DNA of 64,000 bases from Mobula birostris (lineage: Eukaryota). Under the pieces are notes generated by a model. That model worked only from the letters and a program-made list of their open reading frames with translations. It ran no database searches and was not told the origin of the DNA. The stretch is taken from assembly GCF_030028105.1 (NCBI RefSeq), contig NC_092370.1, forward strand, positions 182,786,647 to 182,850,646. Reading direction: 5' to 3'. Of this stretch, positions 15,941-55,261 are shown one piece after another (within the stretch, counting starts at the first letter, position 1; every line of letters begins with the position of its first letter). A program made the position numbers and the translations under genes.

Positions 15941-18786
15941 CTTCTGTATTGTAAGTTGTGCAATTGGAGACTCTGTCATAAGGAACACTTCAGCTTTGTT
16001 GTTTTTGTTCCAGATTTCAATATCTGCAGTCTCTTGCATCTCTGTTCTCACACTTACTGGGTTTGATTAGAACGACAATACTTCACACTTAGTTTCAAGC
16101 CCACTGCCTTCATTGTGCAGGATCAGTGAATTTATCTTGAAGAAGATTACAGATGTGGAATATTTGTGAATGTGGCAGTGGTAAAATATATAAGGTTTCT
16201 CACTCTTTTGTGAGGAAGCTAATGATGATTCTTTCACTGCTCCTTTTGTTAAATGAGCCGTGTCAAAGTTTATAGAACAATGTTTCCATATTTTATATCC
16301 ACTATAATCATTTTTGCTCTTGATGAATGATCATTAATATACCAAATTAAATATTCAAAATGTTGTCCTTTCTTTGTCAAAATGAAAAGTGAATTTTCAT
16401 TTCAATATTAATCCTTTTCTTCAATTCTTAACAATGTTCATGTACAGAAGAGAATTTTTTCAAAGGTAACTTACTACATGTCCCTTCATTTTAATTTTAT
16501 CAGAAAAATAGAAACAATCACATCTAGTCTCAGTTAAGGCTTAATACCAACTTTGAGACCAAGCTGTTTAATGCAATTATCCAATTTTATATATTTACAA
16601 TGATTAATAATAGAATTCACACAGGAAAGGTTAAAGTGCAAACCCAGACTACAGCTATGTTTTATGATTTGTTAAGAATAAATTACACTCAATTTCCACT
16701 CTTCTAGAGATGAAATTAAGGATTTTATTAATGTGGATTTGTAAAGTCATTACTTCCTTTTCTAAGTTAATGCGATACTGAAGGAATTCCAAGGACTTGG
16801 AAGTCACCAGAGCTTTGAGGACTTTTATTCAGACCTTTATTCAAAAAGAACTACTGGTATTTGGACCAACAATTATCATCAACAAACTTCAGCAAGAATA
16901 GCGGATCATCTGATTACTTACATCATTGTTCAAGGAGCATGTTTGATGTTGCCAGATGTCTGCAACACCCTATGCCTTTCTACCAAACCACTTCCCTTCA
17001 CCAGGCTGTTAGATTATAGAAGACAGAACAGTACAGCCCAACAGAAACCCCTCGGCCCACCATGTTGTGCCACACTTTGACCCCACTCCAAGATAAAACT
17101 AATGCTTCTCTCCCATGTAAACCTCTATTTTTCTTGCATCCATTTGCCTTAAATGTCCCTTGTGCCTCTAACACCACCCCCATCAGCACGTTCCACACAC
17201 CCACCACTCTCTATGTAAAACGCCTACCTCTGACACTTGCTCCATTCACCTAAAATTCATGCCCTTTCATATTAGCCATTTCCACCCTGGGAAAAGGGTG
17301 CTGACTGTCCACTCTATCAATGTCTTATCATCATATATACTACTGTCAAATCATGTCTTGTTCTCCTTTGTTTCCTAGCTCACTCAAATTTCCTCATAAG
17401 ATGTGCTCTTTAATCCAGGCATCATCCTGGTAAATCTACTCTGTTCCTTCTCTAAAGCTTCCACATCCTTCCTATAATGAGGTGACATAATACTCCAAGT
17501 ACAGTCTAACCAGAATTTTATCGAGCTGCAATACTACCTCGCAGCTCTTGGACTAAATCCTGTGACTAATGAAGGCCAATGTATCATATGCCTTCTTAAC
17601 CACTCTATCAACTTTCGCAGCTTTGAGGGACCTGTGGGTGTAGCCCCCCAAACTCCCCAGTCCCTGTACACTACTAGGGATCCTACCATTAATCTTGTAT
17701 TCTGCCTTCAATTTCGACCTTCCAAAGAGTATCACTTCACACATTTCTGATTGAACTCCATCTACTACTTCTCAGCCTAGCTCTGTAGCCCATCAATGTT
17801 CTATTGTAATCTATGGCAACCATCTACAATGCCACCCAACCTATGTGTCATCTGCAAACATACTAACCCACCCTTCCACTTCCTCATCCAAGTTACTTAT
17901 TAAAATCACAAAGAGCAGGGGTCCTAAGCTGATCCATGCAGAAAACTACTAATCACCAACCTCCAGGCAGGATATGCTCCATCTACTACCACCTCTGCCT
18001 TCTGTAGGCAAGCCAATTCTGATTCCATGCAACCAAGTTCACTGATCTGCCATCATTGACATGTTTTGTCATCTCCTCAAAGAATTCGGTCAAGCTTGTT
18101 AGGCATGACCTGCCCCTCACAAAACCATGCTGACTACCCCTAATCAGACTGTATGTCTCCAAATGCTTATAGATCCTGTCTCTAAGATTATTCTCCAGTT
18201 CTTTGCCCACCACCAACACAAGGTTCAGTGGTCTATAATTCCCAGTGTTATTCCTTTTACCTTTTTGTGAACAAAGGAATGGCATTTTCCACCCTCCAGT
18301 CCTCTGCATTACTCCTGTGACCTTGATGATGTAAAGACCACCATTAAAGGTACAGGAGTCTCTTCCCTCACTTTCCGCAATAACCTGGAGTAAATCCCAA
18401 CCAGCCCGCAATGACTCATCTATCCTAATGTTTTTCAAGAGTGCCAGCACTTTTTTACCGTCAACATGTATGATCATCAGCCTGTTCAATGCTAACCTCA
18501 CATTCGTCAAAGTCTCTCTCACTGATGAATACTGAAACAAAATATTCATTAAGGACTTCCTCTATCTCCTCTGATTTCAGGCACACTTTTTTTAAAAAAA
18601 TCCCTGATTGGTCCTTCCCTCACTCTAGTCATTCTTCTGTTCTCCACATATGTGTAGGATGTCTTTCGGTTTTCTTTAAATCTACCCACTAAGGCCCTTT
18701 CATGCCCCTTCCAACTCTCCTAAGTCCATTCTTAAGCTCCTTCCTGGCTACCTCGTGACCCTCAACAGCCCTGTCTGTTCCGAAAT

Positions 18787-19445
18787 ATAGTTGGCCCTCC
18801 ATAACCATGGGTTTCGCATCCGTGGATTGAAAATATTCGAAAACAAATTCCAGAAAGTTTCACAAGCAAAACTTGAATTTGCCACACGCTGAGCACTACG
18901 CTGAATGCACGTGAATGAAGTGATGTGTAGGCATACCCTGCTGTAGCCTCCCGCCATTTCACAGATCCTCAGTCTCTCTCCAGCACTCGTTGTTTGAGCA
19001 TTGTCCGCCTCGCATCTCGTTCATTCGCTTCTTGTGTTGTGAGCAAGAGGAAGGAGCTTAAGGCTAGTAAGGGATGGCTGGCTAGCTATGTAAAGCGCTA
19101 CAGCCTCAAGAACTTAAAGATCACGGGAGAATTGGTATCGGCTGATGCCGAGGCAGCATCAGTGTTCCCAGAANNNNNNNNNNNNNNNNNNNNNNNNNNN
19201 NNNNNNNNNNNNNNNNNNNNNNNNNNNNNNNNNNNNNNNNNNNNNNNNNNNNNNNNNNNNNNNNNNNNNNNNNNNNNNNNNNNNNNNNNNNNNNNNNNNN
19301 NNNNNNNNNNNNNNNNNNNNNNNNNNNNNNNNNNNNNNNNNNNNNNNNNNNNNNNNNNNNNNNNNNNNNNNNNNNNNNNNNNNNNNNNNNNNNNNNTCCC
19401 CAGGGGGCCGTGGAACCAATCCCTCACGACTACCGAGGGACGTTA
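18787..19445 (+). mobile_element. Tigger/pogo DNA transposon derivative
   Basis: Tigger-like ends (gttggccctccataacc...ggaaccaatccctcacgactaccgaggg) and the CENP-B-type peptide LKASKGWLASYVKRYSLKNLKITGELVSAD; spans the assembly gap. Confidence 0.8.
19174..19396. other. Assembly gap (223 N)
   Basis: Run of N. Confidence 1.
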
Positions 19446-26350: not shown

Positions 26351-29300
26351 TCCTGTGGATGTGCTGGGACACATCATCAGTGATGTAACCTGGGGTCATC
26401 GGGTGTTTCCGGTCTTTCAACATCATGCACCCTCGCCCAGGTGATCCCGCCGGGGTTGATCAGACCCCAGCTTGTGTCCCAGCAGCATTGGCCCACGGGT
26501 CACCCCTCCTGATCCACAGCCATCTCGAGGCTCTCTCAGCGGCCTCTGTGATCGCTTTCCTCTTGCCAGCCCCAGTGATGCCAAGTAGGGTGTAGACTCT
26601 GCAGAGTGAGTGGCCGGCAAAACCCCTGCAACCCACTTCGATGGGCTTGCAGTGAACCTTCCAGCCTTGCCTCCAGCACTGCTCCACCAGCTCCTGGTAC
26701 TTGGCCCGCTTCCACTCATTTGCTTCCTCAATGCGGTCCTCCCAGGGAACTGCCATCTCAATGAGGACAACCTGCTTCGAGGACACTGAAGAAAGAACCA
26801 CATCTGGCCTCAGTGAAGTTGTTGCTGTTTGGTCGGGGTGCTTCAGCTGACTCCCCGGGTCAAATTGAAGCAGCCAATCTGCTGCAGTGTTAAGCAGGCC
26901 CGATGATGATGCTGGTCCGGGCTGACGTAGGGGCTGTGCTCCGGCTCTGACAAAGGAGATGTTCTTCCTCTGACCACTCTGTTTGCTGGTGGTCATGGCC
27001 ATCGCAATGCTCTCTGACACTGACTTCAGCACCTGGTCATGATGCCACTGGTAGCCACCTTCCCCCAAGGCTTTAAAGCAGCTGCTAAGGATGTGCTCCA
27101 GTGATCCTCTTCCTGGACAGAGAGGACACGCTGGTGTATCGCTCTTGCCCTAGACATGGAGGTTTGCAGGGTTTGGTAAGACATCATAGACAGCCTGGAT
27201 CATAAATTTAATGCACTGGGGTTCTGCCTGCCAGATGTCAGACCAGGAGATTTTCCGCTCCAGCGCACCTTCCCACCTTGTCCATGCTCCCTGTTGCCTC
27301 ATGCCCACCATCCTGCTATTCCTTTCCTCTCCAATGCCAGCCCGCACTTCCTCCAGGACTAGTTGCTGTCTGTCCTTGCCTTTGGCCTTGTCATAGAGAG
27401 GTTGTGAAACGGAGCCCAGCTCCACTCGCCTAGTTGACACTGTCCCCACCACAGCCCTGTGACTCAGCCGGGACTCTGTTACCACCAGCCCTTCCTGAGC
27501 CTTCCACTTCCCGTCCGTCCGTACCTGGATGCCTGCTGCTGCCACTTTAGGGCCCTTGGAATCCCTGTACTGCAGCACCTCTCTTATGCGGGAAACCCTG
27601 AATTCCTCGTCCAGGCTGCTGAAGGGAAGTGGCAGCTCATTGCACCTTTCGTACAGTGCTGTGCTGTTCAGACTACGAGCTAGGCCCAGCCATCTTCGAA
27701 GGTAGTTACTGACCTTCCTTTCCACAGTTGTCACAGGCACCTCGTATATCAGTAGCAGTCATAGGATTGGGGGTAGGATGCCACGCTGGTAAATCCAGGC
27801 TTTGAACCTTCCAGGTAGACCTGATTTGTCCACCGTGGTGAGCCAGCTCTACAGGCTACAGTCGAAGACCTTCCCCAAGCTCTTGACTGGCTTCTCGGTG
27901 ATAGATGGAATTGTAGTGCCATCCGAGGTAAAACAAAACTTGTCCACCACTTTGCCCTTCTTCAACACCATGGACCTGGATTTAGCTGGTTTGAAGCTCA
28001 TCTTTGCCCATGCGATGAGCTTTTCCAGGCCCTGGAGGATCCACCTGTTGCCAGGAACTGATGTTGTCGTGACATTGAGGTCATCCATAAAGGCTCTGAT
28101 CGGGGACTGCCGAACACCAGACTTGGTCAGTGGGCCTCTACACTCTGCCTCAGCTGCCTTGACTATCATATTCATGGCAAGGGCAAAGAGAATTACGGAG
28201 ATTGTACACCCAGTTATAATCCCCTTCTCCCGCCTCTGCCAGCCTGATGTCATAGCTTCAGAAGTGATTCCATGTCTGAAGTTCCAGTAGTAGTTCATGA
28301 TGAGGTCCTTGATATTTCTGGGAACATAATGTTGGTCTAGTGTAATCTCCACCAGTTTGTGGGGTATTGACCCATACAAATGTAGCCAAAGCACGACCAG
28401 GTCCCCCTTCCCCATCTGTGCCTCCCTGATCAGCTGGGTGACTACTCCAGTGTGTTCCAGGCACCCAGGCACTCCGGGAATTCCACCCTACTGCACTGAA
28501 GTGTCGATACTGTATAAGTTCTTGAGGAGAAAGTCTGCCATCTGGCGGGACTAGACACTAAAGAAGATTTTCCCTTCCACACTAAGCAGCGAGATGGATC
28601 TACACTGCTCCAGTCAGACGAATTTTTCTCCTTGGAAATCTAACTCCCTCTGCGTACCTCCACTGGTCTGCCCCTGTCCCCCTGTGCCAGATCACTCACA
28701 GGATCTTCCAAAGAATCTTGAGAAGCTCCGGGCAGTGCTTGTACACCTTGTAGGGTACTCCACTGGGTCCTGGCACAGAACTGGCTCTGGCTGAAGTCAC
28801 AACTTCCTTCCAGGTGGGCTCCCTCACATCGAACTCCACCATGGGGAGTGGTTGACTTGTAAGGGCTCTGTGGAGGCCCAGCTCTTGCTCCCTTGCAGGG
28901 TCACTCAGGGTGTTATGAAGGAAATGGTCTACCTCTTCTTTAGGGCACACAAGGCGGCCACTGCATTTCTACCCTAGGAGCTGTTTTGTAAAACCAAATG
29001 GATTGGCTATGAAGGCAGCTCGCTTCCTGGCTCTTTCTCTCCCTTGCCTCCTGTGCCATTCTGCTCTGCACAGGGTCATTAGCTCCTTCCTGCAGATGTT
29101 CTGGAGCTCAACCAGGGCAGGCTTCTCCTCCTCCATTGCTACCGTGAACTGCCGTGCCAGGGACCGGAGCACTTGGCGCAGTTGGTGGATCTGGGCTGCC
29201 CTGCGGTTCATCGTGTATTGGGATCTGGTGGTCTTTCCCTCTTCTATCCCAAATCTCTCTGTAGCAGAGCTGACAATGATGATGATCATTGTCTGAAGCT

Positions 29301-35465: not shown

Positions 35466-36910
35466 ATAGTCATAGCCATAGTCATACTTTATTGATCCCG
35501 GGGAAAATTGGTTTTCGTTACAGTTGCACCATAAATAATAAGTAGTAATAAAACTATAAATAATTAAATAGTAATATGTAAATTATGCCAGGAAATAAGT
35601 CCAGGACCAGCCTATTGGCTCAGGGTGTCTGGCCCTCCAAGGGAGGAGTTGTAAAGTTTGATGGCCACAGGCAGGAATGACTTCCTATGACGCTCTGTGT
35701 TGCATCTCGGTGGAATGAGTCTCTGGCTGAATGTACTCCTGTGCCCACCCAGTACATTATGTAGTGGATGGGAGATATTGACCAAGATGGCATGCAACTT
35801 GGACAGCATCCTCTTTTCAGACACCACCGTCAGAGAGTCCAGTTCCATCCCCACAACATCACTGGCCTTACGAATGAGTTTGTTGATTCTGTTGGTGTCT
35901 GCTACCCTCAGCCTGCTGCCCCAGCACACAACAGCAAACATGATAGCACTGGCCACCACAGACTCGTAGAACATCCTCAGCATTGTCCGGCAGATGTTAA
36001 AGGACCTCAGTCTCCTCAGGAAATTGAGATGGCTCTAACCCTTCTTGTAGACAGCCTCAGTGTTCTTTGACCAGTCTAGTTTATTGTCAATTCGTATCCC
36101 CAGGTATTTGTAATCCTCCACCATCTCCACACTGACCCCCTGGATGGAAACAGGGGTCACCGGTACCTTAGCTCTCCTCAGGTCTACCACCAGCTACTTA
36201 GTCTTTTTCACATTAAGCTGCAGATAATTCTGCTCACACCATGTGACAAAGTTTCCTACTGTAGCCCTGTACTCAGCCTCATCTCCCTTGCTGATGCATC
36301 CAACTATGGCAGAGTCATCAGAAAACTTCTGAAGATGACAAGACTCTGTGCAGTAGTTGAAGTTCAAGGTGTAAATGGTGAAGATAAAGGGAGACAAGAC
36401 AGTCCCCTGTGGAGCCCCAGTGCTGCTGATCACTCTGTCGGACACACAGTGTTGCAAGCACACGTACTGTGGTCTGCCAGTCAGGTAATCAAGAATCCAT
36501 GACACCAGGAAAGCATCTACCTGCAGCGCTGTCAGCTTCTCCCCCAGCAGAGCAGGGCGGATGGTGTTGAACGCACTGGAGAAGTCAAAAAACATGACCC
36601 TCACAGTGCTCGCTGGCTTGTCCAGGTGGGCGTAGACACGGTTCAGCAGGTAGACGATGGCATCCTCAACTCCTAGTCGGGGCTGGTAGGCAAACTGGAG
36701 GGGATCTAAGTGTGGCCTGACTACAGGCCGGAGCAGCTCCAGAACAAGTCTCTCCAGGGTCCTCATGATGTGGGAGGTCAATGCCACCAGTCTGTAGTCA
36801 TTGAGGCCGCTGGGGCGCGGCGTCTTCGGCACAGGGACGAGGCAGGACGTCTTCCACAGCGCAGGAACCCTCCAGAGCCTCAGGCTCAGGTTGAATACAT
36901 GGCGAAACAC
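35466..36910 (-). mobile_element. Young 5'-truncated Rex1/Babar LINE (RT and C-terminus)
   Basis: ORF 36194-37096: YRLVALTS, DPLQFAYQ, FFDFSSAFNTI, GAPQGTVLSP, KFSDD. ORF 35612-35983 is the C-terminus. (CATAGT)-like tail. Confidence 0.92.
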
Positions 36911-37269
36911 ATGATAATTTATGAAGGTAAGGATTGAATCTACAGATGAATCACATATAAATAACAAACTAAAATGCATTAATATTAAATATTGTAAGGT
37001 ACGTAATAGATTAGCCAATGACACTTTGAATATGATGTGGCTGGGAGTCCTGAAGCCTAATAGCCTGGGAGAAGAACTGTTTCTCATCCTGACCATTCTT
37101 GATTTTATGCATTGTAGTCTCCTGCCTGATGGTAGAAAGTCAAAGAGGATGCTGGATAGATGGGTGGATGGGTGGGATCCTTAGTAATACTACGGGCCTT
37201 GCATATGCAGTGCTCCTGATAAATGTCCCCGATGTCCCCTATGATCCTCTCAGCTGTTCTCACAGTCAT

Positions 37270-39470
37270 GGCTGAAAGAAGCTGGGAGCTTAACATCCAA
37301 GGGTACACATGGCATCGAAAGGACAGGCACCTGAGTAGAGGGGTGGAATGGCTCTGTTGGTAAAAAATGAAATCAAATCCATTGAAAGAAGTGACGTAGG
37401 ATCAGAAGATGTAGAATCCTTGTGGATAGAGTTAAGAAACTTCAAGGGTAAAAAGAGCCTGATGGGAGTTATATGCAGAACTCTGGTGGATTGAAATTAC
37501 AAAGAGAGATTGAAAAGCCATGTAAAAGGGAGAATGTTAGAATGGCCATGGGGGATTTCAGGTTGGTACTGGACCCCAAGAGAAGAAATACGTAGAATAC
37601 CTAGTGATAGCATTTCAGAGCAGATCAAGCCTACTAAGGAAAAGACAAATCTGGATTGAGTATTGTGCAATGAACCAGATTTTATTAGGGAGCTTAAAGT
37701 AAATATGATAGAAAGCGCCCTGGAGTTTGAGAGGGAGAAGCTAAAATCAGATGAATTGGTATTGCAGTTCAGTAAAGGTAACTATAGAGGCATGAGAGAG
37801 GAGCTGGCCAGATTTGATTGGAAGGCCACATTAGAAAGGACGATGATAGAAAGATTTGAAGGTAGATAAGTCACTTGCATTAGATGGATTACACCGCAAG
37901 TTTCTGAAAGTAGTGGTTGAAGAGATTGTAGAGGTATTACTAGTGATATTTCAAGAATCACAAATGTCACTACACTCTTTAGAAAGGGCGAGAGGCAAAA
38001 GACAGGAAATGGTAGGCTAGTTAGACTGACTTCAGTAGTTGGTCAGATGTTGGAGTCCATTACAAAAGATGAAGATTCTGAGTACTTGGAGTCCATGATA
38101 AAATAGGCTGAAGTCAGCATACTTTCCTTAAGGGGAAATCTCACCAAACAAATCAGTTGGAATTCTTTGAGAAAATAACAGGAAGGATAGACAAAGGAAA
38201 GTCAGTGGATGTTGGTGAACGCAGCAGGCCAGGGAGCAACTTTTGTGTGTGTTGCTTGAAATTCCAGCATCTGCAGATTTCCTCGTGTTTGTGTCAGTGG
38301 ATGTTGTTTACTTCGATTTTCAGAAGGCCTTTGACAAGATGCTACATGTGAGGCTCCTCCACTGTATAAGAGCCCACAGCATTATGGGAAAGATAGTAGC
38401 ATGGACGTAAGATTGGCTGACTGGCAGATGCTAAAGAGAGTGAATAGTAGGGACCCTTTCTGGTTGGCTGCTGGTGACTAATGGTGTTCAGCAGGGATCA
38501 ATGTAAGACTGTTACTTGGTACATTATGTGTTAACAATCTTCATGACAGAATTGGTGGCTTTGTAGCCACATTTGTGGATGATGCAGAGATAGGTGCAGG
38601 GCAAGGTAGTGTAGGGGAAGCAGCGGGTCTGTAGATGAACTTGGACAAATTAGGAAAATGAGGAATAGAGTGGCAAATGGAATATACAGTGTAGGGAACT
38701 GTATGGTCACACACTTTGGTAGAAGGAGAAAAGGCATAGACTATTTTCTGAAGAGGGAGTGAGTTCAGAAATCAGAGGTGCAAAGGGACTTGGGAAGTTC
38801 TAGCACAGGATTCTCTGAAGGTAAACTTTCAGGTTGAGTCAGCAGGAAGGAAGACAAATATAATGATAGCATTCATTTCAAGAAGACTTGATTATAAATG
38901 CTGAGGCTTTATAACACATTGGCCAGACCACATTTAGAGTGCTGCAATCAGTTTTGGGTCCCATAACTAAGAAATGATGTGCTGGCATTGGAGAGAATCC
39001 AGAGGAAGTTCATGAGAAAATTCCCAGAAATGAAAGGGTTAACATATAAAGAGTATTTGATGGCCCTTGGCATGTACTCGCTGGAGTGCAGAAGCATGAA
39101 TGGGATCTCTCATAACCTACTGAATGTTATAAGGCCTAAATAGTGTGTACGTAGAGTGGAAGGTTCTTGGACCAAAAGGCACAGCACAGAATAGAAAGAC
39201 ATCCCTTTAGAACAGAGATTTAAAGGATTTCTTTAGTCAGAGGGTGATGAATCTGTGAAACCCTTAGCCACAGACAGCTAATGAGGCCAAGTCATCGGGT
39301 GTACTTAAAGTGGAGGTTGACAGGTTCTTGATGAGTAAGGACATCAGAGGTTGTGGGGAGGCGGCAGAAGAATGAGACTGACAGGGAAAATAAATCAGCC
39401 ATGATCAAATGACATGTCACACTTGATGGGCCAAGTGGCCTAATTCTGCTCATATGATTTATGGTCTTAA
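37270..39470 (+). mobile_element. Old CR1 LINE ORF2 with internal deletions
   Basis: APE and RT remnants (WELNIQG, KGNYRGMREELA, DFQKAFDK, FVDD) and a CR1 3' UTR; the upstream piece lies at ~35240-35360. Confidence 0.82.
38215..38292 (+). mobile_element. 78-bp Penelope terminal micro-insertion with 14-bp TSD
   Basis: Flanked by GTCAGTGGATGTTG at 38201-38214 and 38293-38306; content matches the Penelope 3' end, with a short inverted 5' piece. Confidence 0.85.
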
Positions 39471-39574
39471 TGAAATAGATCCTTTTATCTTCATCTCAAT
39501 CAGAAACCTTTCTTTGTCAATAAGGTGCTCAAATAACATTGGTTAAGAAAGGCAATATAATGTTTGACTCTGTA

Positions 39575-39890
39575 AACAACAGGAATTCTGCAGATGCTGT
39601 AAATTTAAGCAACACACATCAAAGTTGCTGGTGAACGCAGCAGGCCAGGCAGCATCTCTAGGAAGAGGTGCAGTCGACGTTTCAGGCCGAGACCCTTCGT
39701 CAGGACTAACTGAAGGAAGAGTGAGTAAGAAATTTGAAAGTGGGAGGGGGAGGGGGAGATCCAAAATGATAGGAGAAGACAGGAGGGGGAGGGATGGAGC
39801 CAGGAGCTGGACAGGTGATTAGCAAAAGGGATACGAGAGGATTATGGGACAGGAGGTCCGGGAAGAATGATGGGGGGTGCGGGGGGACTA
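39575..39890 (-). mobile_element. Penelope-like 3' terminal fragment
   Basis: Reverse complement of ~55380-55690. Confidence 0.9.
39672..39707 (-). ncRNA. Minimal type I hammerhead ribozyme
   Basis: AGUC-CUGACGA-AGGGUCUCGGCCU-GAAAC-GUC-GACU; intact core and 4-bp helix I. Confidence 0.8.
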
Positions 39891-40922
39891 TTCAGGCCAG
39901 ATCATTGAGCAGAAATACTGTTTCCGATCTCTTTGTGTAGACTCTGTCCGACCTCCATATAGATCAACATTTTCAGTTTTAGATCTGAAGCTTTCATTCA
40001 GCTCATCTTGCCATGACAAACCATAGATATGAAATCAAACACTACTAGCTACAGTTGACAAGAAACAGGAGCCATCTACAGTTCTTAAAATGTAAATGAC
40101 AAGCATGTAATCAGTTTGAAGTTAAAACGAAGCACTGTCTATAGAGCAGATTGCTAGCACACTGCATCTGGTTTACTGCTGCTCAAAAGGTGCAGCATAA
40201 GATAATAGGTTATTTACTTTGGCTTGTTTCAAAATAGACGACACTGACCCTATTGCTTAGGTCAAGGAAGCTTGCAAACCATGTGGAAACAAATCACTTA
40301 GCATATCAATAACTGATCTGTTAATAAGTTGGGACTTTTATGTACTCAGAGAAGATGGTGTTACAGCATTAATTGTGGGTAGTTGGAAACTATGTCTCCA
40401 AAAATCTCTTAGACCTTTTGTGTAAAAAGGGTATCTGAGGGAATATCATACAAGTGCGAAGTCACACAAATGGCAAAGAAACCGCATAAGTATAGAGAGG
40501 AGTTCAGGCTTATTGGGAATGAGATAAGGAACATCAAGAAGCATGAAAGAAAAATGGGGTGAATTAGAATCCATTCCTCCAACTTCTGTTTCTGCAATAG
40601 ACGATTTATTCATCTGCTTCGTTGGTATGCCTTGTTAGTTTGCAAGATTTATACCTGTGCTCTGGAATGTTTCAGAAATGGTTTGCAACTTGGAAATGTT
40701 TTATAAAGTAGAAATCATCTGTGAGTTTTAAATGTATTTAAGAATGCTGTTCAGATTTAAACATGTATCACTGAAAATAAATGAACTGTGTTTTAAACTA
40801 TTTTGTTAGCTGGAAGTATTTCCTCCTTGGTAGGGTGGGTGGACCCACCACTCAAATAGTGGAGCTCACTGTGGAGAATAAACAGGGAAAAGAACTAGTC
40901 TTTGACAATTGGGTAGTTTCAG

Positions 40923-41029
40923 TATAATCTCCCTTTAGAGAGAGTACTTGTGGTTATTTACATCGGATAGAACTTAAGGTTTTTGCTTGAGTTTAGAACT
41001 TTGTGATCAGCAAATCCAATACCATCACA
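40923..41029 (+). repeat. 5' LTR U5 end (direct repeat copy 1)
   Basis: Aligns to 41871-41973 with about 15 substitutions and one 4-nt gap (counted by eye); both copies end CAATACCATCACA. Confidence 0.9.
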
Positions 41030-41031
41030 GT

Positions 41032-41049
41032 TGGTGCCCAACATGGTCA
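41032..41049 (+). promoter_or_regulatory. Primer-binding site, tRNA-Lys1,2 type
   Basis: TGGTGCCCAACATGG matches 13 of the first 15 nt of TGGCGCCCAACGTGGGGC; both mismatches are CpG transitions. Confidence 0.75.
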
Positions 41050-41151
41050 TGTTATACCGGAAGTATTATTTTAGAAAGAACTATTATTTAGCAGTAGTCC
41101 AACTCAAGGTGTGCTCAGTAAGAGCAAAGGGACTTCACCTAGTGCTATAAA

Positions 41152-41870
41152 ATGGACAACATCCTGGTTTCCAGCAGAAATGCTAGTCAATATCATGAAT
41201 GCGTTAATAGTATTGCAGAAATACTGGATAATGCCCCAAACTGCTCCTCAAACTGAGCATGATGAATATTTGATTCTTCAAGTCGGAGACTGGAATGATG
41301 AAGGGATAGGGCATCGAGTAGGATGCAGATTAGATAGACCAAACCTCACTGTACAACCTGCAGAACCCAGACCATTGCAATTTGTACCAGATCCCAGCTC
41401 TGCAGCAATAATTCGTACCTGGAGACAACAAGTTAGACCCTTTTTAGATAGAAACAAAGCACCCGAGTGGGGACCACATATTTCTGTTTTAGAACTTGGT
41501 GACACGTATCTTAAACTTGACACATTGGGATACCATGTATTCCTTCCAGACACACTTGAGATAGCATCCACACCAGTAAACCCTAGAGGTACTAATAAAG
41601 CCTGGAGAATCAATGCTTGGGAACCTGCACTAGAATTACTAAAAAGATTGACTATTACCAGGAAAAGAATACAGGGATAGGCTCCTGTTCAGGAAGCTAC
41701 TGGAGCTTCCCCAGCATAAACATTCTGTCAGGTTTTTGGAACTTTGACTATTCAGATTTTGCAGGCAGTATGCACCACACAACTGATGCTGAAGGAATTC
41801 CATCGTGGCTACTTCAGAATGTGAGGAGGTTACAGGCCTTCTGGGCCAGTCAATCAGTTATACTCCCCAA
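41152..41870 (+). pseudogene. gag: Spumavirus-like gag 5' portion with two frameshifts
   Basis: ATG 41152 MDNILVSSRNASQYHECVNSIAEILDNAPN; shift to HDEYLILQVGDWNDEGIGHR...PEWGPHISVLELGDTY (ORF 41111-41680); shift to DAEGIPSWLLQNVRRLQAFW (ORF 41617-41886). Colinear with foamy Gag motifs as I recall them. Confidence 0.65.
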
Positions 41871-41973
41871 TATCATCTCACTGTAGTGAGAGTACTTGTG
41901 GCTATTTATAGCGGATAGGACTTAAGGCCTTTGAGTTTACAACCTTGTGGTCAGCAAACACAATACCATCACA
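41871..41973 (+). repeat. 3' LTR U5 end (direct repeat copy 2)
   Basis: Direct repeat of 40923-41029; ends in CA and is not followed by a PBS. Confidence 0.9.
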
Positions 41974-45178: not shown

Positions 45179-48062
45179 TCAGAACACCGCCCCAGTCTTC
45201 CCTCCATACCCCCTGACCCCCGTAGCCACAAGGGCCATATCTAACTCCCTCTTAAATATAGCCAATGAACTGGCCTCAACTGTTTCCTGTGGCAGAGAAT
45301 TCCACAGATTCACCACTCTCTGTGTGAAGAAGTTTTTCCTAATCTCAGTCCTAAAAGGCTTCCCCTCTATCCTCAAACTGTGACCCCTCGTTCTGGACTT
45401 CCCCAACATCGGGAACAATCTTCCTGCATCAAGCCTGTCCAATCCCTTTAGGATCTTATACGTTTCAATCAGATCCCCCCTCAATCTTCTAAATTCCAAC
45501 GAGTACAAGCCCAGTTCCCCCAGTCTTTCTTCATATGAAAGTCCTGCCATCCCAGGAATCAATCTGGTGAACCTTCTCTGTACTCCCTCTATGGCAAGGA
45601 TGTCTTTCCTCAGATTAGGGGACCAAAACTGCACACAATACTCCAGGTGCGGTCTCACCAAGGCCTTGTACAACTGCAGTAGTACCTCCCTGCTCCTGTA
45701 CTCAAATCCTCTCGCTATAAATGCCAGCATACCATTCGCCTTTTTCACCGCCTGCTGTACCTGCATGCCCACTTTCAATGACTGGTGTATAATGACACTC
45801 AGGTCACGTTGCACCTCCCCTTTTCCTAATCAGCCACCATTCAGATAATAATCTGTTTTCCTATTTTTGCCACCAAAGTGGATAACTTCACATTTATCCA
45901 CATTAAATTGCATCTGCCATGAATTTGCCCACTCACCCAACCTATCCAAGTCACCCTGCATCCTCTTAGCATCCTCCTCACAGCTAACACTGCCACCCAG
46001 CTTCGTGTCATCCGCAAACTTGGAGATGCTGCATTTAATTCCCTCATCCAAGTCATTAATATATATTGTAAACAACTGGGGTCCCAGCAATGAGCCTTGC
46101 GGTACCCCACTAGTCACCGCCTGCCATTCTGAAAAGGTCCCGTTTATTCCCACTCTTTGCTTCCTGTCTGCTAACCAACTCTCCACCCACACCAATACCT
46201 TACCCCCAATACCGTGTACTTTAAGTTTGCACACTAATCTCCTGTGTGGGACCTTGTCAAAAGCCTTCTGAAAATCCAAATATACCACATCCACTGGTTC
46301 TCCCCTATCCACTTTACTAGTTACATCCTCAAAAAATTCTATGAGATTCGTCAGACATGATTTTCCTTTCACAAATCCATGCTGACTTTGTCCGATCATT
46401 TCACCACTTTCCAAATGTGCTGTTATCACATCCTTGATAACTGACTCCAGCAGTTTCCCCACCATCGACGTTAGGCTAACCGGTCTATAATTCCCCGGTT
46501 TCTCTCTCCCTCCTTTTTTAAAAAGTGGAGTTACATTAGCCACCCTCCAATCCTCAGGAACTAGTCCAGAATCTAACGAGTTTTGAAAAATTATCACTAA
46601 TGCATCCACTATTTCTTGGGCTACTTCCTTAAGCACCCTGGGATGCAGACCATCTGGCCCTGGGGATTTATCTGCCTTCAATCCCTTCAATTTACCTAAC
46701 ACCACTTCCCTACTAACATGTATTTCGCTCAGTTCCTCCATCTCACTGGACCCTCTGTCCCCTACTATTTCTGGAAGATTATTTATGTCCTCCTTAGTGA
46801 AGACAGAACCAAAGTAATTATTCAATTGGTCTGCCATGTCCTTGCTCCCCATAATCAACTCACCTGTTTCTGTCTGCAGGGGACCTACATTTGTCAGGTG
46901 AGCCACTTTCTCTGGCTAATTTGTATGCTGCATCTTTGGAATTGATACTATCCCTAATTTCTCTTGTCAGCCACGGGTGCACTACCTTCCTTGATTTATT
47001 CTTTTGCCAAACAGGGATGAACATTTGTTGCAGTTCATCCATGCAACCTTTAAATGCTTGCCATTGCATATCCACCGTCAATTCTTTAAGTGTCATTTGC
47101 CAGTCTAGCTTAGCTAATTCACGTCTCATACCTTCAAAGTTACCCCTCTTTAAGTTCAGAACCTTTGTTTCTGAATTAACTATGTCACTCTCCATCTTAA
47201 TGAAGAATTCCACCATATTATGGTCACTCTTACCCAAGGGGCCTCTCACGACAAGATTGCTAATTAACCCTTCCTCATTGCTCAAAACCCAGTCCAGAAT
47301 AGCCTGCTCTCTAGTTGGCTCCTCGACATGTTGGTTCAAAAAACCATCCCGCATACATTCCAAGAAATCCTCTTCCTCAGCACCTTTACCAATTTGGTTC
47401 ACCCAATCTACATGTAGATTGAAGTCACCCATTATAACTGCTGTTCCTTTATTGCACACATTTCTAATTTCCTGTTTAATACCATCTCCGACCTCACTAC
47501 TACTGTTAGGTGGCCTGTACACAACTCCCACCAGCGTCTTCTGCCCCTTAGTGTTACGCAGCTCTTCCCATATCGATTCCACATCTTCTCGGCTTATGTC
47601 CTTCCTTTCTATTGCGTTAATCTCTTCTTTAACCAGCAACGCCACCCCACCTTCCCTTCCTTCATGTCTATCCCTTCTGAATATTGAATATCTCTGAATG
47701 TTGAGCTCCCATCCCTGGCCACCCTGGAGCCATGTCTCTGTGATCCCAACTATATCATAATCATTAATAACAATCTGCACTTTCAATTCATCCACCTTAT
47801 TACGAATTCTCCTCGCATTGACACTCAAAGCCTTCAGGCGCTCTTTTACAACTCTCTTAGCCCTTATACAATTATGCTGAAAAGTGGCCCTTTTTAATGC
47901 TTGCCCTGGATTTGTCGACTTGCCACTTTTACTTTTCTCCATAGTACTTTTTGTTTCTACCCTCACTTTACACCCCTCTGCCTCTCTGCACTGGTTCCCA
48001 TCCCCCTGTAGTGAACTAACCTCCTCATGCCTAGCCTCTTTAATTTGATTCCCACCCCCCAA
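45179..48062 (-). pseudogene. CR1 ORF2p (APE endonuclease + RT), disrupted
   Basis: GITETW, MGDFN, SDHN (46860-48062); NYRPVSLTS, DFQKAFD, GVPQGS, KFADD (45830-46906); C-terminus 45179-45814. Deletion/frameshift at ~46900 and a stop at 45830. Confidence 0.92.
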
Positions 48063-48067
48063 CCATT

Positions 48068-48637
48068 CTAGTTTAAAGTCACCTCAGTAGCCCCCGCTAA
48101 TCTCCCTGCCAGGATATTGGTCCCCCTAGGATTCAAGTGCAACCCGTCCTTTTTGTACAGGTCACGCCTGCGCCAAAAGAGGTCCGAATGATCCAAAAAC
48201 TTGAATCCCTGCCCCCTGCTCCAATCCCTCAGCCACGCATTTATCCTCCACCTCATCGCATTCCTACTCTCACTGTCGCGTGGCACAGGCAGTAATCCCG
48301 AGATTACTACCTTTGCGGTCCTTTTTCTCAACTCCCTTCCTAGCTCCCTATATTCCCCTTTCAGGACCTCATCCCTTTTCCTACCTATGTCATTGGTACC
48401 TATATGTACCACGACCTCTGGCTCCTCACCCTCCCACTTCAGGATATCTTGGACACGATCAGAAATATCCCGGACCCTGGCACCAGGGAGGCAAACTACC
48501 ATCCGGGTCTCTGGACTGCGTCCACAGAATCGCCTATCTGACCCCCTTACTATCGAGTCCCCTATCACAACTGCCCTCCTCTTCCTTGCCCTACCCTTCT
48601 GAGCTACAGGGCCGGACTCTGCCGGAGGCACGGCCAC
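48068..48637 (-). CDS. CR1 ORF1p SGNH/GDSL esterase domain (partial)
   Basis: VIGDSIVRG, VHIGTND and DGLHLN blocks. Confidence 0.88.
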   Translation of the reverse strand: MAVPPAESGPVAQKGRARKRRAVVIGDSIVRGSDRRFCGRSPETRMVVCLPGARVRDISDRVQDILKWEGEEPEVVVHIGTNDIGRKRDEVLKGEYRELGRELRKRTAKVVISGLLPVPRDSESRNAMRWRINAWLRDWSRGQGFKFLDHSDLFWRRRDLYKKDGLHLNPRGTNILAGRLAGATEVTLN

Positions 48638-49664
48638 TGTCGCTTCTCCCGGGTAAGCTGTCCCCCCAAACAGTACTCAAACAGGAGTACCTGTTGTTAA
48701 GGGGCACAGCCACCGGGGTACTCCCTATTACCTGACCTTTCCCCTTCCCCCTCCTAACCGTGACCCACTTGTCTGCCTCCCGTGGCCCCGGCGTGACCAC
48801 CTGCCTGCAGCTCCTCTCTATCACCTCCTCACTCTCCCTGACCAGACGAAGGTCATCGAGCTGCAGCTCCAGTTCGGTAACGAATAAGGTTGATGAACTT
48901 GTAGGACAATTACAGATTGGCAGGTATGATATTGTAGGCATTCCTGAATCATGGCTGAAAGAAAATAATAGCTGGGAGCTTAATGTCCAAGGACACACTT
49001 TGTATTGAAAGGACAGGCAGGAAGGCAGAGGGGGTGGCATGGTTCAGCTGGTAAAAAATGAAATCAAGTCATTAGAAAGAAGTGACATAAGATGTGAAGG
49101 TGTTGAGTCATTGTGGATAGAGCTAAGGGACTGCAAGGATAAAAAGACCCTGATGAAAACTATATACAGACCCCCTCTAAACAGTAGTAAGGATGTGCTT
49201 TACAAGTTATTATGGGAGATAGAAAATGCATGCCAAAAAAGGGGATTTCATTATGCAGGAAATCGCAGGATGGTGCTGGATTCCAAGAGGAAGAATTTCT
49301 AGGATGCCTACAAGATGGCTTTTTACAGTAACTCTTGCTTGAGACCACCAGGTGATCAGCTATACTGGATTGGCTGTTATGTAATGAACTAGAATTGATT
49401 AGAGAGCTTAAGGTAGAAGAACCCTAAGGGGCAGTGAACATAATGTGATAAAATTCACCCTGAAATTTAAGAAGGAGAAGCTAAAGTCAGATATATCAGT
49501 ATTACAATGGAGTAAAGGGAATTGCAGAGGCATGAGAGAGGAGTTGGCCAGAATTGATTGGAAAAGAACAGTTGGTAGTCCTTGTGCAGGATTCGTTAAA
49601 GGTTAATTTGCAGGTTGAGTCTGAAACGAGGAAGGCAAATGCAATGGTAGCAATAATTTCCTGA

Positions 49665-52267: not shown

Positions 52268-55261
52268 TTGAAACCATCTCTCACTGCTCCCCATCTGTAA
52301 TTTCTTCGGCTCTTCAACTTTTCGACCACATTTTGACTCAGACTCGCTATCACAGCCATATATCCTTTCTTGGAACGTGCCTCCATCGCCAACTTACTCC
52401 AGTTGGCTTTAGGATTGGTTTCCGAGCCTCTCAATTTGGACCTTCTGAGGATCCCAGGTATTCACATTTTATTGACTCTGCCTCTCGCCGCTTCTCCCGT
52501 CAAGCTCTGAAGGTGACTCTCTCCGCCATGAGGAGGTACTTGGTGTCCCTATCCCAGACCCTTCCACACCTTCGGGACACTTTCTTCGCCGTCTGTAATG
52601 GTCCTACCCGTTATTTCATCCTCCGTCGGATTCACGCCTGCAATCGCTGTTTTTTTGACTTTGTCATGTTAGGCAAAGATCGCAAGATCCTACATCTACG
52701 GACTCCAGAGCCTGCTGGCCATGAAACTAGCAGGCATGAACTTCAGATTGCCTCTGCCATTGATCTCGCCGGCTCCAACACCTCAGGGCATATTCAAAAC
52801 CCGGACTCCAGCAACGACCATGGACACCTTCACAGCGATTGCGCAACCACCAACTGAGACTCCAGCCTTGAACTCCAGGCCGGGTCTTTATGTGCTGCTA
52901 TTGTGACTCCCGTTTCCCCTTCCCCCACCAATACTCTGCAATCTCGTCTCCTTCAGATCCCATCGTCAGCTCCTGGGTACTCAGAGGCTCCACCTTCCTC
53001 TCACCCCAACCCTCCCCTCTCCATTGACACCCCCAGCCTCTGCCCTCCCACCTCTGATCCCAGCTCTCATCTGTGCCGGGTCTTTACCATCCCCTCCGAC
53101 CTTCAACTGTCGGAGGCAGAACGCTCTGTCCTCAGTAAGGGCCTCACCTTTGTCCCCATTCGCCCACACCTCAGCGAGTTCTGCATTCGCCATGATGCGG
53201 AACTCTTCTTCCGCCGTCTCCGTCTCCGAGCCTACTTCTTCGGCAAGGACTCTTCCACCCCCACCGATGACCCCTTCTCCCATCTTCAACCTTCCTCTTC
53301 TTCATGGACAGCCCGCTCTGGGCTTCTGCCTGCTCTGGATCTCTTTATTGTTAACTGTCAACGGGACATCAACCGTCTCGACTTCACCGCACCTTGTCCC
53401 CATTCCAACCTCACTCCTTCGGAACGCTCTGCTCTCCACTCCCTCCGCACTAATCCTAACCTTATTATTAAACCCGCCGATAAGGGGGTTGCTGTTGTAG
53501 TCTGGCGTACTGACCTCTACCTTGCCGAGGCACAGCAACAACTCGTGGATACCTCCTCTTATTTACCCCTCGATCGTGACCCCACTAAGGAGCACCAGGC
53601 CATTGTCTCCCACACCACCACCGACTTTATCCACTCAAGGGATCTCCCATCCACTGCTACCAACTTTATAGTTCCCACACCTCGCACTTCCCGTTTCTAC
53701 CTCCTACCCAAGATCCACAAACCTGCCTGTCCTGGCCGACCTATTGTCTCAGCTTGCTCCTGCCCCACCAAACTCGTTTCTGCATACCTCGACATGGTTT
53801 TATCCTCCCTTGTTCAATCCCTTCCTACCTATGTTCATGACACTTCTCACGCTCTTAAACTTTTCGATGATTTTAAGTTCCCTAGCCCCCATCGCTTTAT
53901 TTTCACCATGGATGTCCAGTCCCTATATACTTCCATCCCCCATCAGGAAGGTCTCAAAGCTCTACGCTTCTTTTTGGATTCCAGACCTAATCAGTTCCCC
54001 TCTACCACCACTCTGCTCCGTCTAGCGGAATTAGTCCTTACTCTTAATAATTTCTCCTTTGGCTCCTCCCACTTCCTCCAAACTAAAGGTGTAGCTATGG
54101 GCACCCGTATGGGTCCTAGCTATGCCTGCCTTTTTGTTGGGTTTGTGGAACAATCTATGTTCCCTGCCTATTCTGGTATCTGTCCCCCACTTTTCCTTCG
54201 CTACATCGACGACTGCATTGGCGCTGCTTCCTGCACGCATGCAGAGCTCGTTGACTTTATTGACTTTGCCTCCAACTTTCACCCTGCCCTCAAGTTTACC
54301 TGGTCCATTTCCGACACCTCCCTCCCCTTTCTAGATCTTTCTGTCTCTGTCTCTGGAGACAGCTTATCCACTGATGTCTACTATAAGCCTACTGACTCTC
54401 ACAGCTATCTGGACTATTCCTCTTCTCACCCTGTCTCTTGCAAAAACGCCATTCCCTTCTCGCAATTTCTCCGCCGCATCTGCTCTCAGGATGAGGCTTT
54501 TCATTCTAGGATGAGGGAGATGTCCTCCTTTTTTAAAGAAAGGGGCTTCCCTTCCTCCACTATCAACTCTGCTCTTAAACGCATCTCCCCCATTTCACGT
54601 ACATCTGCTCTCACTCCATCCTCCCGCCACCCCACTAGGAATAGAGTTCCCCTGGTCCTCACCTACCACCCCACCAGCCTCCGGGTCCAACATATTATTC
54701 TCCGTAACTTCCGCCACCTCCAACGGGATCCCACCACTAAGCACATCTTTCCCTCCCCCCCCTTCTGCTTTCCGCAGGGATCGCTCCCTACGCGACTCCC
54801 TTGTCCATTCGTCCCCCCCATCCCTCCCCACTGATCTCCCTCCTGGCACTTATCCGTGTAAGTGGAACAAGTGCTACACATGCCCTTACACTTCCTCCCT
54901 TACCACCATTCGGGGCCCGAAACAGTCCTTCCAGGTGAGGCGACACTTCACCTGTGAGTCGGCTGGGGTGATATACTGCGTCCGGTGCTCCCGCTGTGGC
55001 CTTTTATATATTGGCGAGACCCGACGCAGACTGGGAGACCGCTTTGCTGAACACCTACGCTCTGTCCGCCAGAGAAAGCAGGATCTCCCAGTAGCCAGAC
55101 ATTTTAATTCCACATCCCATTCCCATTCTGACATGTCTATCCACAGCCTCCTCTACTGTAAAGATGAAGCCACACTCAGGTTGGAGGAACAACACCTTAT
55201 ATTTCGTCTGGGTAGCCTCCAACCTGATGGCATGAACATCGACTTCTCTAACTTCCGCTAA
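52268..55261 (+). pseudogene. Penelope RT + GIY-YIG endonuclease ORF (one stop at 52855, one frameshift ~54760)
   Basis: KPADKG, FYLLPKIHK, MDVQSLYTSIP, GVAMGT, RYIDD; linker CKWNKCYTC; VIYCVRCSRCGLLYIGET...RFAEH. Confidence 0.92.

Follow-up and report, generated by a model that had tools for sequence, protein, structure and literature searches.

The DNA analysed here, a stretch of 64,000 nucleotides referred to as the window, contains a compact locus that the sequence-only reading had taken for a cryptic foamy virus-like endogenous retrovirus (ERV), and this raises the question of what kind of element it is and how it acquired its present form. Searches with the window's own ORF translations gave no match in Pfam, PDB, or the ESM Atlas, so its identity had to come from its relatives in the 4.0-Gb genome. 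We put at roughly 90% the probability that the locus is a dead member of a high-copy foamy-like ERV family and likely lost the remainder of gag, pol, env, and most of its 3′ LTR in one deletion after integration.

Organization of the locus

The locus consists of a 5′ LTR, a primer-binding site (PBS) for tRNA-Lys(CTT), and half of gag; a deletion has brought gag directly next to the terminal ~105 nt of a 3′ LTR (Table 1). The direct repeat that had first drawn attention to it is present at 40920–41029 and 41868–41973 (81.8% identity over 110 columns with one 4-nt gap, E 1e-24), and both copies terminate in CA. The 2-nt spacer and PBS-like string that follow the first copy are also there, TATAAA (40702), AATAAA (40877), and the ATG (41152) lie exactly where they had been placed, and the peptides proposed to resemble Gag fall on three stop-free segments (41143–41256, 41075–41680, and 41599–41886). 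The anatomy differs from the first reading, however, in that the repeat is not a whole LTR. The lengths of family LTRs and the homology upstream of it indicate that it covers no more than the U5 end of an LTR of ~1.1 kb. Homology of the window to family copies extends upstream to ~40040–40063, and the first ~125 nt of its 5′ LTR are not recognisable.

The two proposed signals fared differently among 29 other family LTRs: AATAAA, noted for its R/U5-like spacing, is conserved in 22 of them, whereas a TATA-like word occurs in only two, so that TATAAA is specific to the window and the proposed TATA box gains no support. The ATG at the start of gag is found in 12 of 17 family copies. The right end of the window copy is clear from the sequence, with a unique flank starting ATAC directly beyond the 3′ LTR piece. 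The left end and its TSD are uncertain. The candidate in Table 1 would set the 5′ LTR at 1,111 nt, which fits the family lengths; positions 39919–40040 showed no alignment to family LTR starts (z 1.2–2.0), and the 6-mer of the candidate, which was spotted after the fact, occurs at 0.33 per kb in the window.

Table 1. Features of the proviral locus, in window coordinates
Feature	Position	Strand	Basis
Candidate left TSD, ATAC then TG	39915..39918	+	Equals the 4 nt beyond the 3′ LTR end
5′ LTR (U3-R-U5), recognisable part	40040..41029	+	~70–85% identity to family LTRs; end shared with 5′, 3′, and solo LTRs
Likely poly(A) signal AATAAA	40877..40882	+	Conservation in other LTRs; function inferred
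PBS complementary to tRNA-Lys(CTT), decayed at CpG positions	41032..41046	+	Column counts over 20 copies
5′ half of gag, with frameshifts and stops, truncated early in the capsid-like central domain	41152..41870	+	Sibling homology
Deletion junction gag/U5	41866..41874	+	Imperfect 6–7 nt microhomology between gag and LTR
Terminal ~105 nt of 3′ LTR, downstream of the poly(A) signal	41868..41973	+	K2P 0.17 to the 5′ LTR over 106 sites

Other repeats populate the window. On the minus strand, a LINE in pieces (45179–48676) carries a GDSL-esterase ORF1, an endonuclease, and an RT, and RT fragments of other retroelements lie at 17986–18561, 27849–28487, and 36194–37180. A Penelope-like element with an RT followed by a GIY-YIG endonuclease occupies 52858–55261 on the plus strand. 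Just left of the provirus there is an abundant short repeat (39574–39880 and 38235–38290; up to 66 matches among the fetched loci) that has an inverted partner 1.3 kb away. Positions 19174–19396 are a run of N.

Primer-binding site and gag

Column counts over 20 family PBS regions place the base variation chiefly at CpG positions. The complementarity to tRNA-Lys covers the first 15 nt and not the full 18. The PBS-complementary pattern occurs at 24 genomic sites, and the three that were checked are all tRNA-Lys(ctt) genes, which together with the column counts confirms the proposed tRNA-Lys PBS. A cluster of 14 matches to the tRNA-Lys(CTT) 3′ pattern was seen at G000:C6:83.20–83.33 Mb.

Gag_FV_central (PF20672) was the sole profile family matched in 54 frames, in 8 of 17 copies and always below the cut-off. 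In the genome-wide search, three of 39 candidates exceeded the Pfam cut-off of 30 (40.6, 35.6, and 31.3 bits), and all three loci match the window DNA; the best of them, L162, is 69.5% identical to window positions 40244–41850 over 1,709 columns. Through these siblings, the proposed capsid-like similarity between EGIPSWLLQN of the window and REIPIWLGRN of prototype foamy virus (PFV) gains support, although the window's own frames score nothing against the Gag profile.

The three N-terminal Gag similarities that had also been proposed found no support from PF03276, PDB profiles, or folding of these decayed sequences. Gag_spuma_N (PF03276) matched neither the window frames nor the genome; the sequences are decayed, and in the genome-wide search the controls were silent too. 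Family Gag profiles run against the PDB did not retrieve PFV Gag, and word-index protein searches gave no match. AlphaFold models of the Gag pieces had pLDDT values of 43 (N-terminal) and 58 and were uninformative; for the latter, Foldseek returned no match, and the best VIA-align Z score was 6.2, to unrelated helical proteins.

The deletion in the window copy

At position 41870, where the window passes from gag into U5, 18 of 19 other copies run on into more family sequence, and none of the 19 shares the junction. In siblings that have both ends, the missing stretch measures ~3.3 to 7.5 kb, which includes their own deletions and insertions. A single post-integration deletion likely removed what followed in gag, the whole of pol and env, and the greater part of the 3′ LTR. 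It would have been a chromosomal event via short microhomology, because the U3 present in the 5′ LTR would have had no source in a template whose 3′ end lacked polypurine tract, U3, and R.

Among six organisms compared, contigs from organisms B, D, and H bridge the deletion junction, and contigs from B, D, E, and H bridge the junction between LTR and flank; the flanks of the locus differ by up to ~8% in other organisms. Runs X16 and X17 had no bridging contig among those listed, which is not evidence of absence. The insertion and the deletion therefore predate those splits, and the deletion would predate the split of organisms A, B, D, and H. The window locus is a dead, inert fragment.

Size and insertion signature of the family

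First-look searches, whose candidate numbers are not copy numbers, returned 275 loci for 841 nt of the internal sequence, 915 for the integrase ORF, and 3,588 for the last 330 nt of the LTR. When 40 of the gag candidates were scored, 43 matches were obtained on many chromosomes, mostly at 73–82% identity, and 150 scored integrase candidates gave 151 matches; 40 of the LTR candidates were scored. Internal sequence follows none of the 29 best other LTR matches, which points to a predominance of solo or 3′ LTRs.

In natural copies, the family LTRs start with TGTGAT and end with TCACA, and the family has 8-bp inverted ends. A survey of the LTR ends at 29 loci gave no left end in 17 and no right end in one. 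The 11 complete solo LTRs range from 805 to 1,383 nt, with seven at 1,115–1,194 nt, and eight of them are flanked by a 4-bp TSD with at least three of four positions matching; a 3-bp TSD with at least two of three matching occurs in two, and a perfect 5-bp TSD in none. A G-rich run precedes most of the seven family 3′ LTRs examined. One provirus, L104/L084 (G000:C28, 40.55–40.56 Mb), shows both LTR ends with no matching TSD and may be a recombinant of two insertions.

pol, env, and phylogenetic placement

The siblings have the gene order gag–pol (RT, RNase H, integrase)–env-like. RNase H and integrase were found downstream of gag among the 150 longest of 295 ORFs. All eight PDB matches of the integrase ORF at E ≤ 1 are PFV integrase, and one long pol frame had no PDB match. 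The integrase profile counted for the foamy type (35–39 versus 17 bits), as did the RT-thumb profile (72–80 versus 32 bits). In a small protein set, the family integrase profile gave 34 bits for a frog NYNRIN-like protein, 29 for an arachnid retroelement, and 28 for feline foamy virus (FFV). At L093:8991–9785, a further integrase-like stretch with 29–31% identity to the FFV and P0002 (see below) integrases lies on the plus strand, opposite to that of the family copy, and belongs to a second element.

The RT core of one copy, read in a single frame with X at four stops, scored 116–123 bits against marmoset and prototype foamy virus RT, with the next score at 38; Ty3 RT reached 37 bits compared with 123 for foamy RT. 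In a search of 1.84 billion representatives, FFV Pol led with 121 bits, ahead of an unnamed Logan protein at 116 bits and a fragment from Scyliorhinus torazame at 110, with the next row at 83. Judged by sequence comparison, the RT and integrase of the family are closest to those of foamy viruses.

Foamy_virus_ENV (PF03408) gave weak matches below its cut-off, at profile positions 338–392, in two of 101 short post-integrase ORFs (E 0.0016 and 0.031). A stricter genome-wide search with this profile found no match, and its controls were silent too. PF00523, the Mononegavirales fusion protein, had no match in the same 101 ORFs. No A9 protease match was found in nine frames of three copies, in which the region is decayed or deleted.

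For the RT phylogeny, a first tree used 70 of 150 representatives, and the later trees kept 30 of those. Six family copies were included, namely the two found first and four of ten further copies taken from the best-scoring long matches. They group together (100/98) with the catshark fragment as their sister (81/96), and the inner clade that holds them (95/93) also includes FFV, the Logan protein, and two rows from Pleurodeles. The Callorhinchus milii and teleost rows lie outside this clade and inside the next (96/95). With only two family copies, the support for the inner foamy clade was 86/90. The rows from fish and newt come from database proteins without annotation rather than from curated FLERVs, and no row is a labelled lokiretrovirus.

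The sister row, GCB66461.1, shares 40% identity with the RT core of the family. It is an unannotated and distant fragment (end branch 0.76) and not a described ERV; in its entry, the foamy-like RT fragment is joined to a PRDM11-type PR/SET domain, probably as a gene-model artefact. The Logan protein, P0002, comes from a contig of 10,956 nt and has 1,687 residues; its N-terminal part is Gag-like and shares one frame with a foamy-like Pol that contains protease, RT, RNase H, IN, and SH3_11 domains. A single frame for Gag and Pol would be unusual for a foamy virus. P0002 falls inside the foamy clade of the RT tree and is by far the best match to the family integrase profile (69 bits compared with 28 for FFV).

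Copies lacking the RT active site

Of 30 loci retrieved with a deleted-type query, 29 have 22–28 nt between the two RT blocks, in contrast to 228–246 nt in three others, and the additional ~220 nt contain the catalytic motifs. Among 40 loci picked by gag or integrase, 10 lack the RT core, 6 carry it, and 24 are uninformative. One aligned copy has a second deletion of ~600 nt that spans the protease and the start of RT, a stretch present in few loci. The core-spanning family matches listed all carry stops, and the YxDD motif is kept in 4 of 12 core-retaining copies.

Because one deletion is common to dozens of loci on different chromosomes, the element appears to have been copied after the loss, and so through complementation in trans, a mechanism used here as defined in excerpts of PMC8922424. 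The comparison implies a subfamily that lacks the RT active site and would have been mobilised by intact helpers. The window locus itself is cryptic, as had been proposed, and would be missed by RT-based screens. The same does not hold for the family, in which many copies bear RT or integrase; RT screens would find it through its many core-retaining copies.

Age

The paired LTRs of 11 proviruses differ by K2P 0.148–0.235. Five further pairs gave no alignment, and one 35-nt match was an unrelated repeat and was dropped. LTRs have diverged two to three times as far as the flanks have between organisms, and the family is old. Absolute dating was rejected: a rate of 2.2e-10 (excerpts of PMC4422223) gives ~340–530 Myr and 1e-9 gives ~75–120 Myr, and CpG decay inflates both.

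Alternative explanations

Gypsy and class I elements likewise produce 4–5 bp TSDs, and the TSD length would suit an element of Ty3/Gypsy or epsilon type that has a Lys PBS and resembles foamy Gag by chance; the weak Gag and Env scores and the similar rating of some non-foamy proteins and FFV by the integrase profile point the same way. This explanation is barely credible, however, given the RT scores (116–123 versus at most 38 bits), the siblings with Gag_FV_central above the cut-off, and the AU tests, which rejected the Gypsy (0.024) and epsilon (0.007) placements with six copies and again with two (0.043 and 0.012). The tree had been named as the check that could overturn the foamy assignment, and both groupings failed in it; the assignment is borne out by RT, integrase, the Gag central domain, and the PBS, mostly via siblings. 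A different placement within a wider foamy-related group, on the side of the teleost FLERVs, C. milii, or the lokiretroviruses, is unlikely but not negligible, and the family may then equal a described shark lineage such as ERV-Spuma.0-Sca. AU tests rejected neither the teleost (0.055) nor the C. milii (0.13) grouping, and the sister row is from a catshark. Nevertheless, the best tree places the family with the FFV and newt rows; ERV-Spuma.0-Sca is reported with AciFLERV/AliFLERV and without Gag and Env domains in the available text of PMC10699275; and the post-integrase ORFs gave foamy Env matches instead of the F-type match, a lokiretrovirus trait according to excerpts of PMC7947760.

The form of the locus could also be accounted for without the proposed deletion. 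Its compact layout, with two similar ends and a PBS, resembles a mobile TRIM-like miniature element in which the LTR–gag–U5 unit has 105-bp terminal repeats. The absence of this junction from the 19 other copies, the identity of the 5′ repeat as the tail of a ~1-kb LTR, and a 3′ end devoid of polypurine tract, U3, and poly(A) signal leave this only the faintest chance. There is a slim chance that the 3′ U5 piece stems from a separate neighbouring insertion and that host DNA between two elements was deleted, as the genome holds thousands of LTR candidates, the left TSD is uncertain, and some other LTRs are up to 86% similar to the 5′ copy compared with 82% for the 3′ piece. Against this, the best of 22 matches of the 3′ piece is its own 5′ LTR (81.8%, next 80.2%), the K2P of 0.17 falls inside the paired-LTR range of the family, and the candidate TSD stands at the expected distance. 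For the preferred reading, a deletion within a single provirus, an ancestral virus of foamy type would have reached the germline, with tRNA-Lys as its primer and a 4-bp duplication made at integration; the family would then have multiplied, with most insertions collapsing to solo LTRs.

Discussion

Among foamy-like ERVs, a type already known, the family represents a new lineage. Foamy viruses have accessory genes and an internal promoter and express Pol from its own spliced mRNA. The family resembles the Spumaretrovirinae (feline, prototype, and marmoset foamy viruses) in a collinear RT core with ~40% identity, a PFV-like integrase, the Gag central domain, a Lys PBS, a long LTR, and a weak Env likeness. 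It differs in being wholly decayed, with neither a Gag N-terminal domain nor an A9 protease detected, and in its LTR candidates, which number in the thousands; excerpts of PMC8922424 call foamy fossils 'extremely rare'.

Like CmiFLERV and ERV-Spuma.0-Sca, the family is multi-copy with a foamy-like Pol in a (probable) cartilaginous fish. The chromosome-scale 4.0-Gb assembly and the catshark sister row are consistent with such a host, which the sequence-only reading took to be probably a ray. For the C. milii element, the available text of PMC5512871 describes only pol and an unresolved placement; for ERV-Spuma.0-Sca of Scyliorhinus canicula, that of PMC10699275 gives 293 elements with no Gag domain, grouped with teleost FLERVs, and elements only in the catshark among 12 screened chondrichthyans, three of them batoids. 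Both were placed with, or basal like, the ray-finned-fish FLERVs (excerpts of PMC5512871 and PMC10699275). These published descriptions set them apart from the present family, which has a detectable foamy Gag and a weak Env and lies near FFV and newt. NviFLERV, AciFLERV, and DrFV share with it the order LTR–gag–pol–env and Lys-tRNA priming, which is found in most fish foamy-like elements (excerpts of PMC5210030). Teleost elements are mostly young, however, and their Gag and Env cannot be aligned to those of mammalian foamy viruses (excerpts of PMC5512871 and PMC5210030), whereas the family of the window is old by its paired-LTR distances. Abundance alone is not new, since a chondrichthyan genome has on average 474 Clade III RT loci (excerpts of PMC11089739).

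What is notable in the family is its placement near true foamy viruses with a recognisable Gag, together with the RT-dead subfamily. Neither a foamy-like ERV of rays nor an RT-deleted foamy subfamily was found in the available, mainly open-access texts, including PMC6955096, PMC6001957, and bioRxiv 2020.12.18.423569 and 2021.11.23.469661. We tentatively suggest, at a little under even odds, that this is the first described foamy lineage of rays, nearer to mammalian and salamander foamy viruses than to the teleost and chimaera elements, with recognisable Gag and Env, mass-copied, and including RT-dead copies, a subfamily mobilised in trans.

Host co-divergence is the ground on which the age of retroviruses, foamy viruses included, has been argued, and its weakest part is the cartilaginous-fish branch (excerpts of PMC5512871). 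If the ray lineage is true, the 'true' foamy clade would gain a branch of cartilaginous fish at its base, along with orthologous insertions for dating; the insertions shared between species are such a set for the family itself. Its catalogue of LTRs, gag, pol, and env-like sequence, with hundreds of internal copies, is material for a deep-phylogeny test, and the family could help to decide whether the foamy viruses of bony vertebrates have an elasmobranch lineage as their sister. Germline copying of a foamy-type element without its own polymerase would bear on the rarity of foamy endogenisation in mammals.
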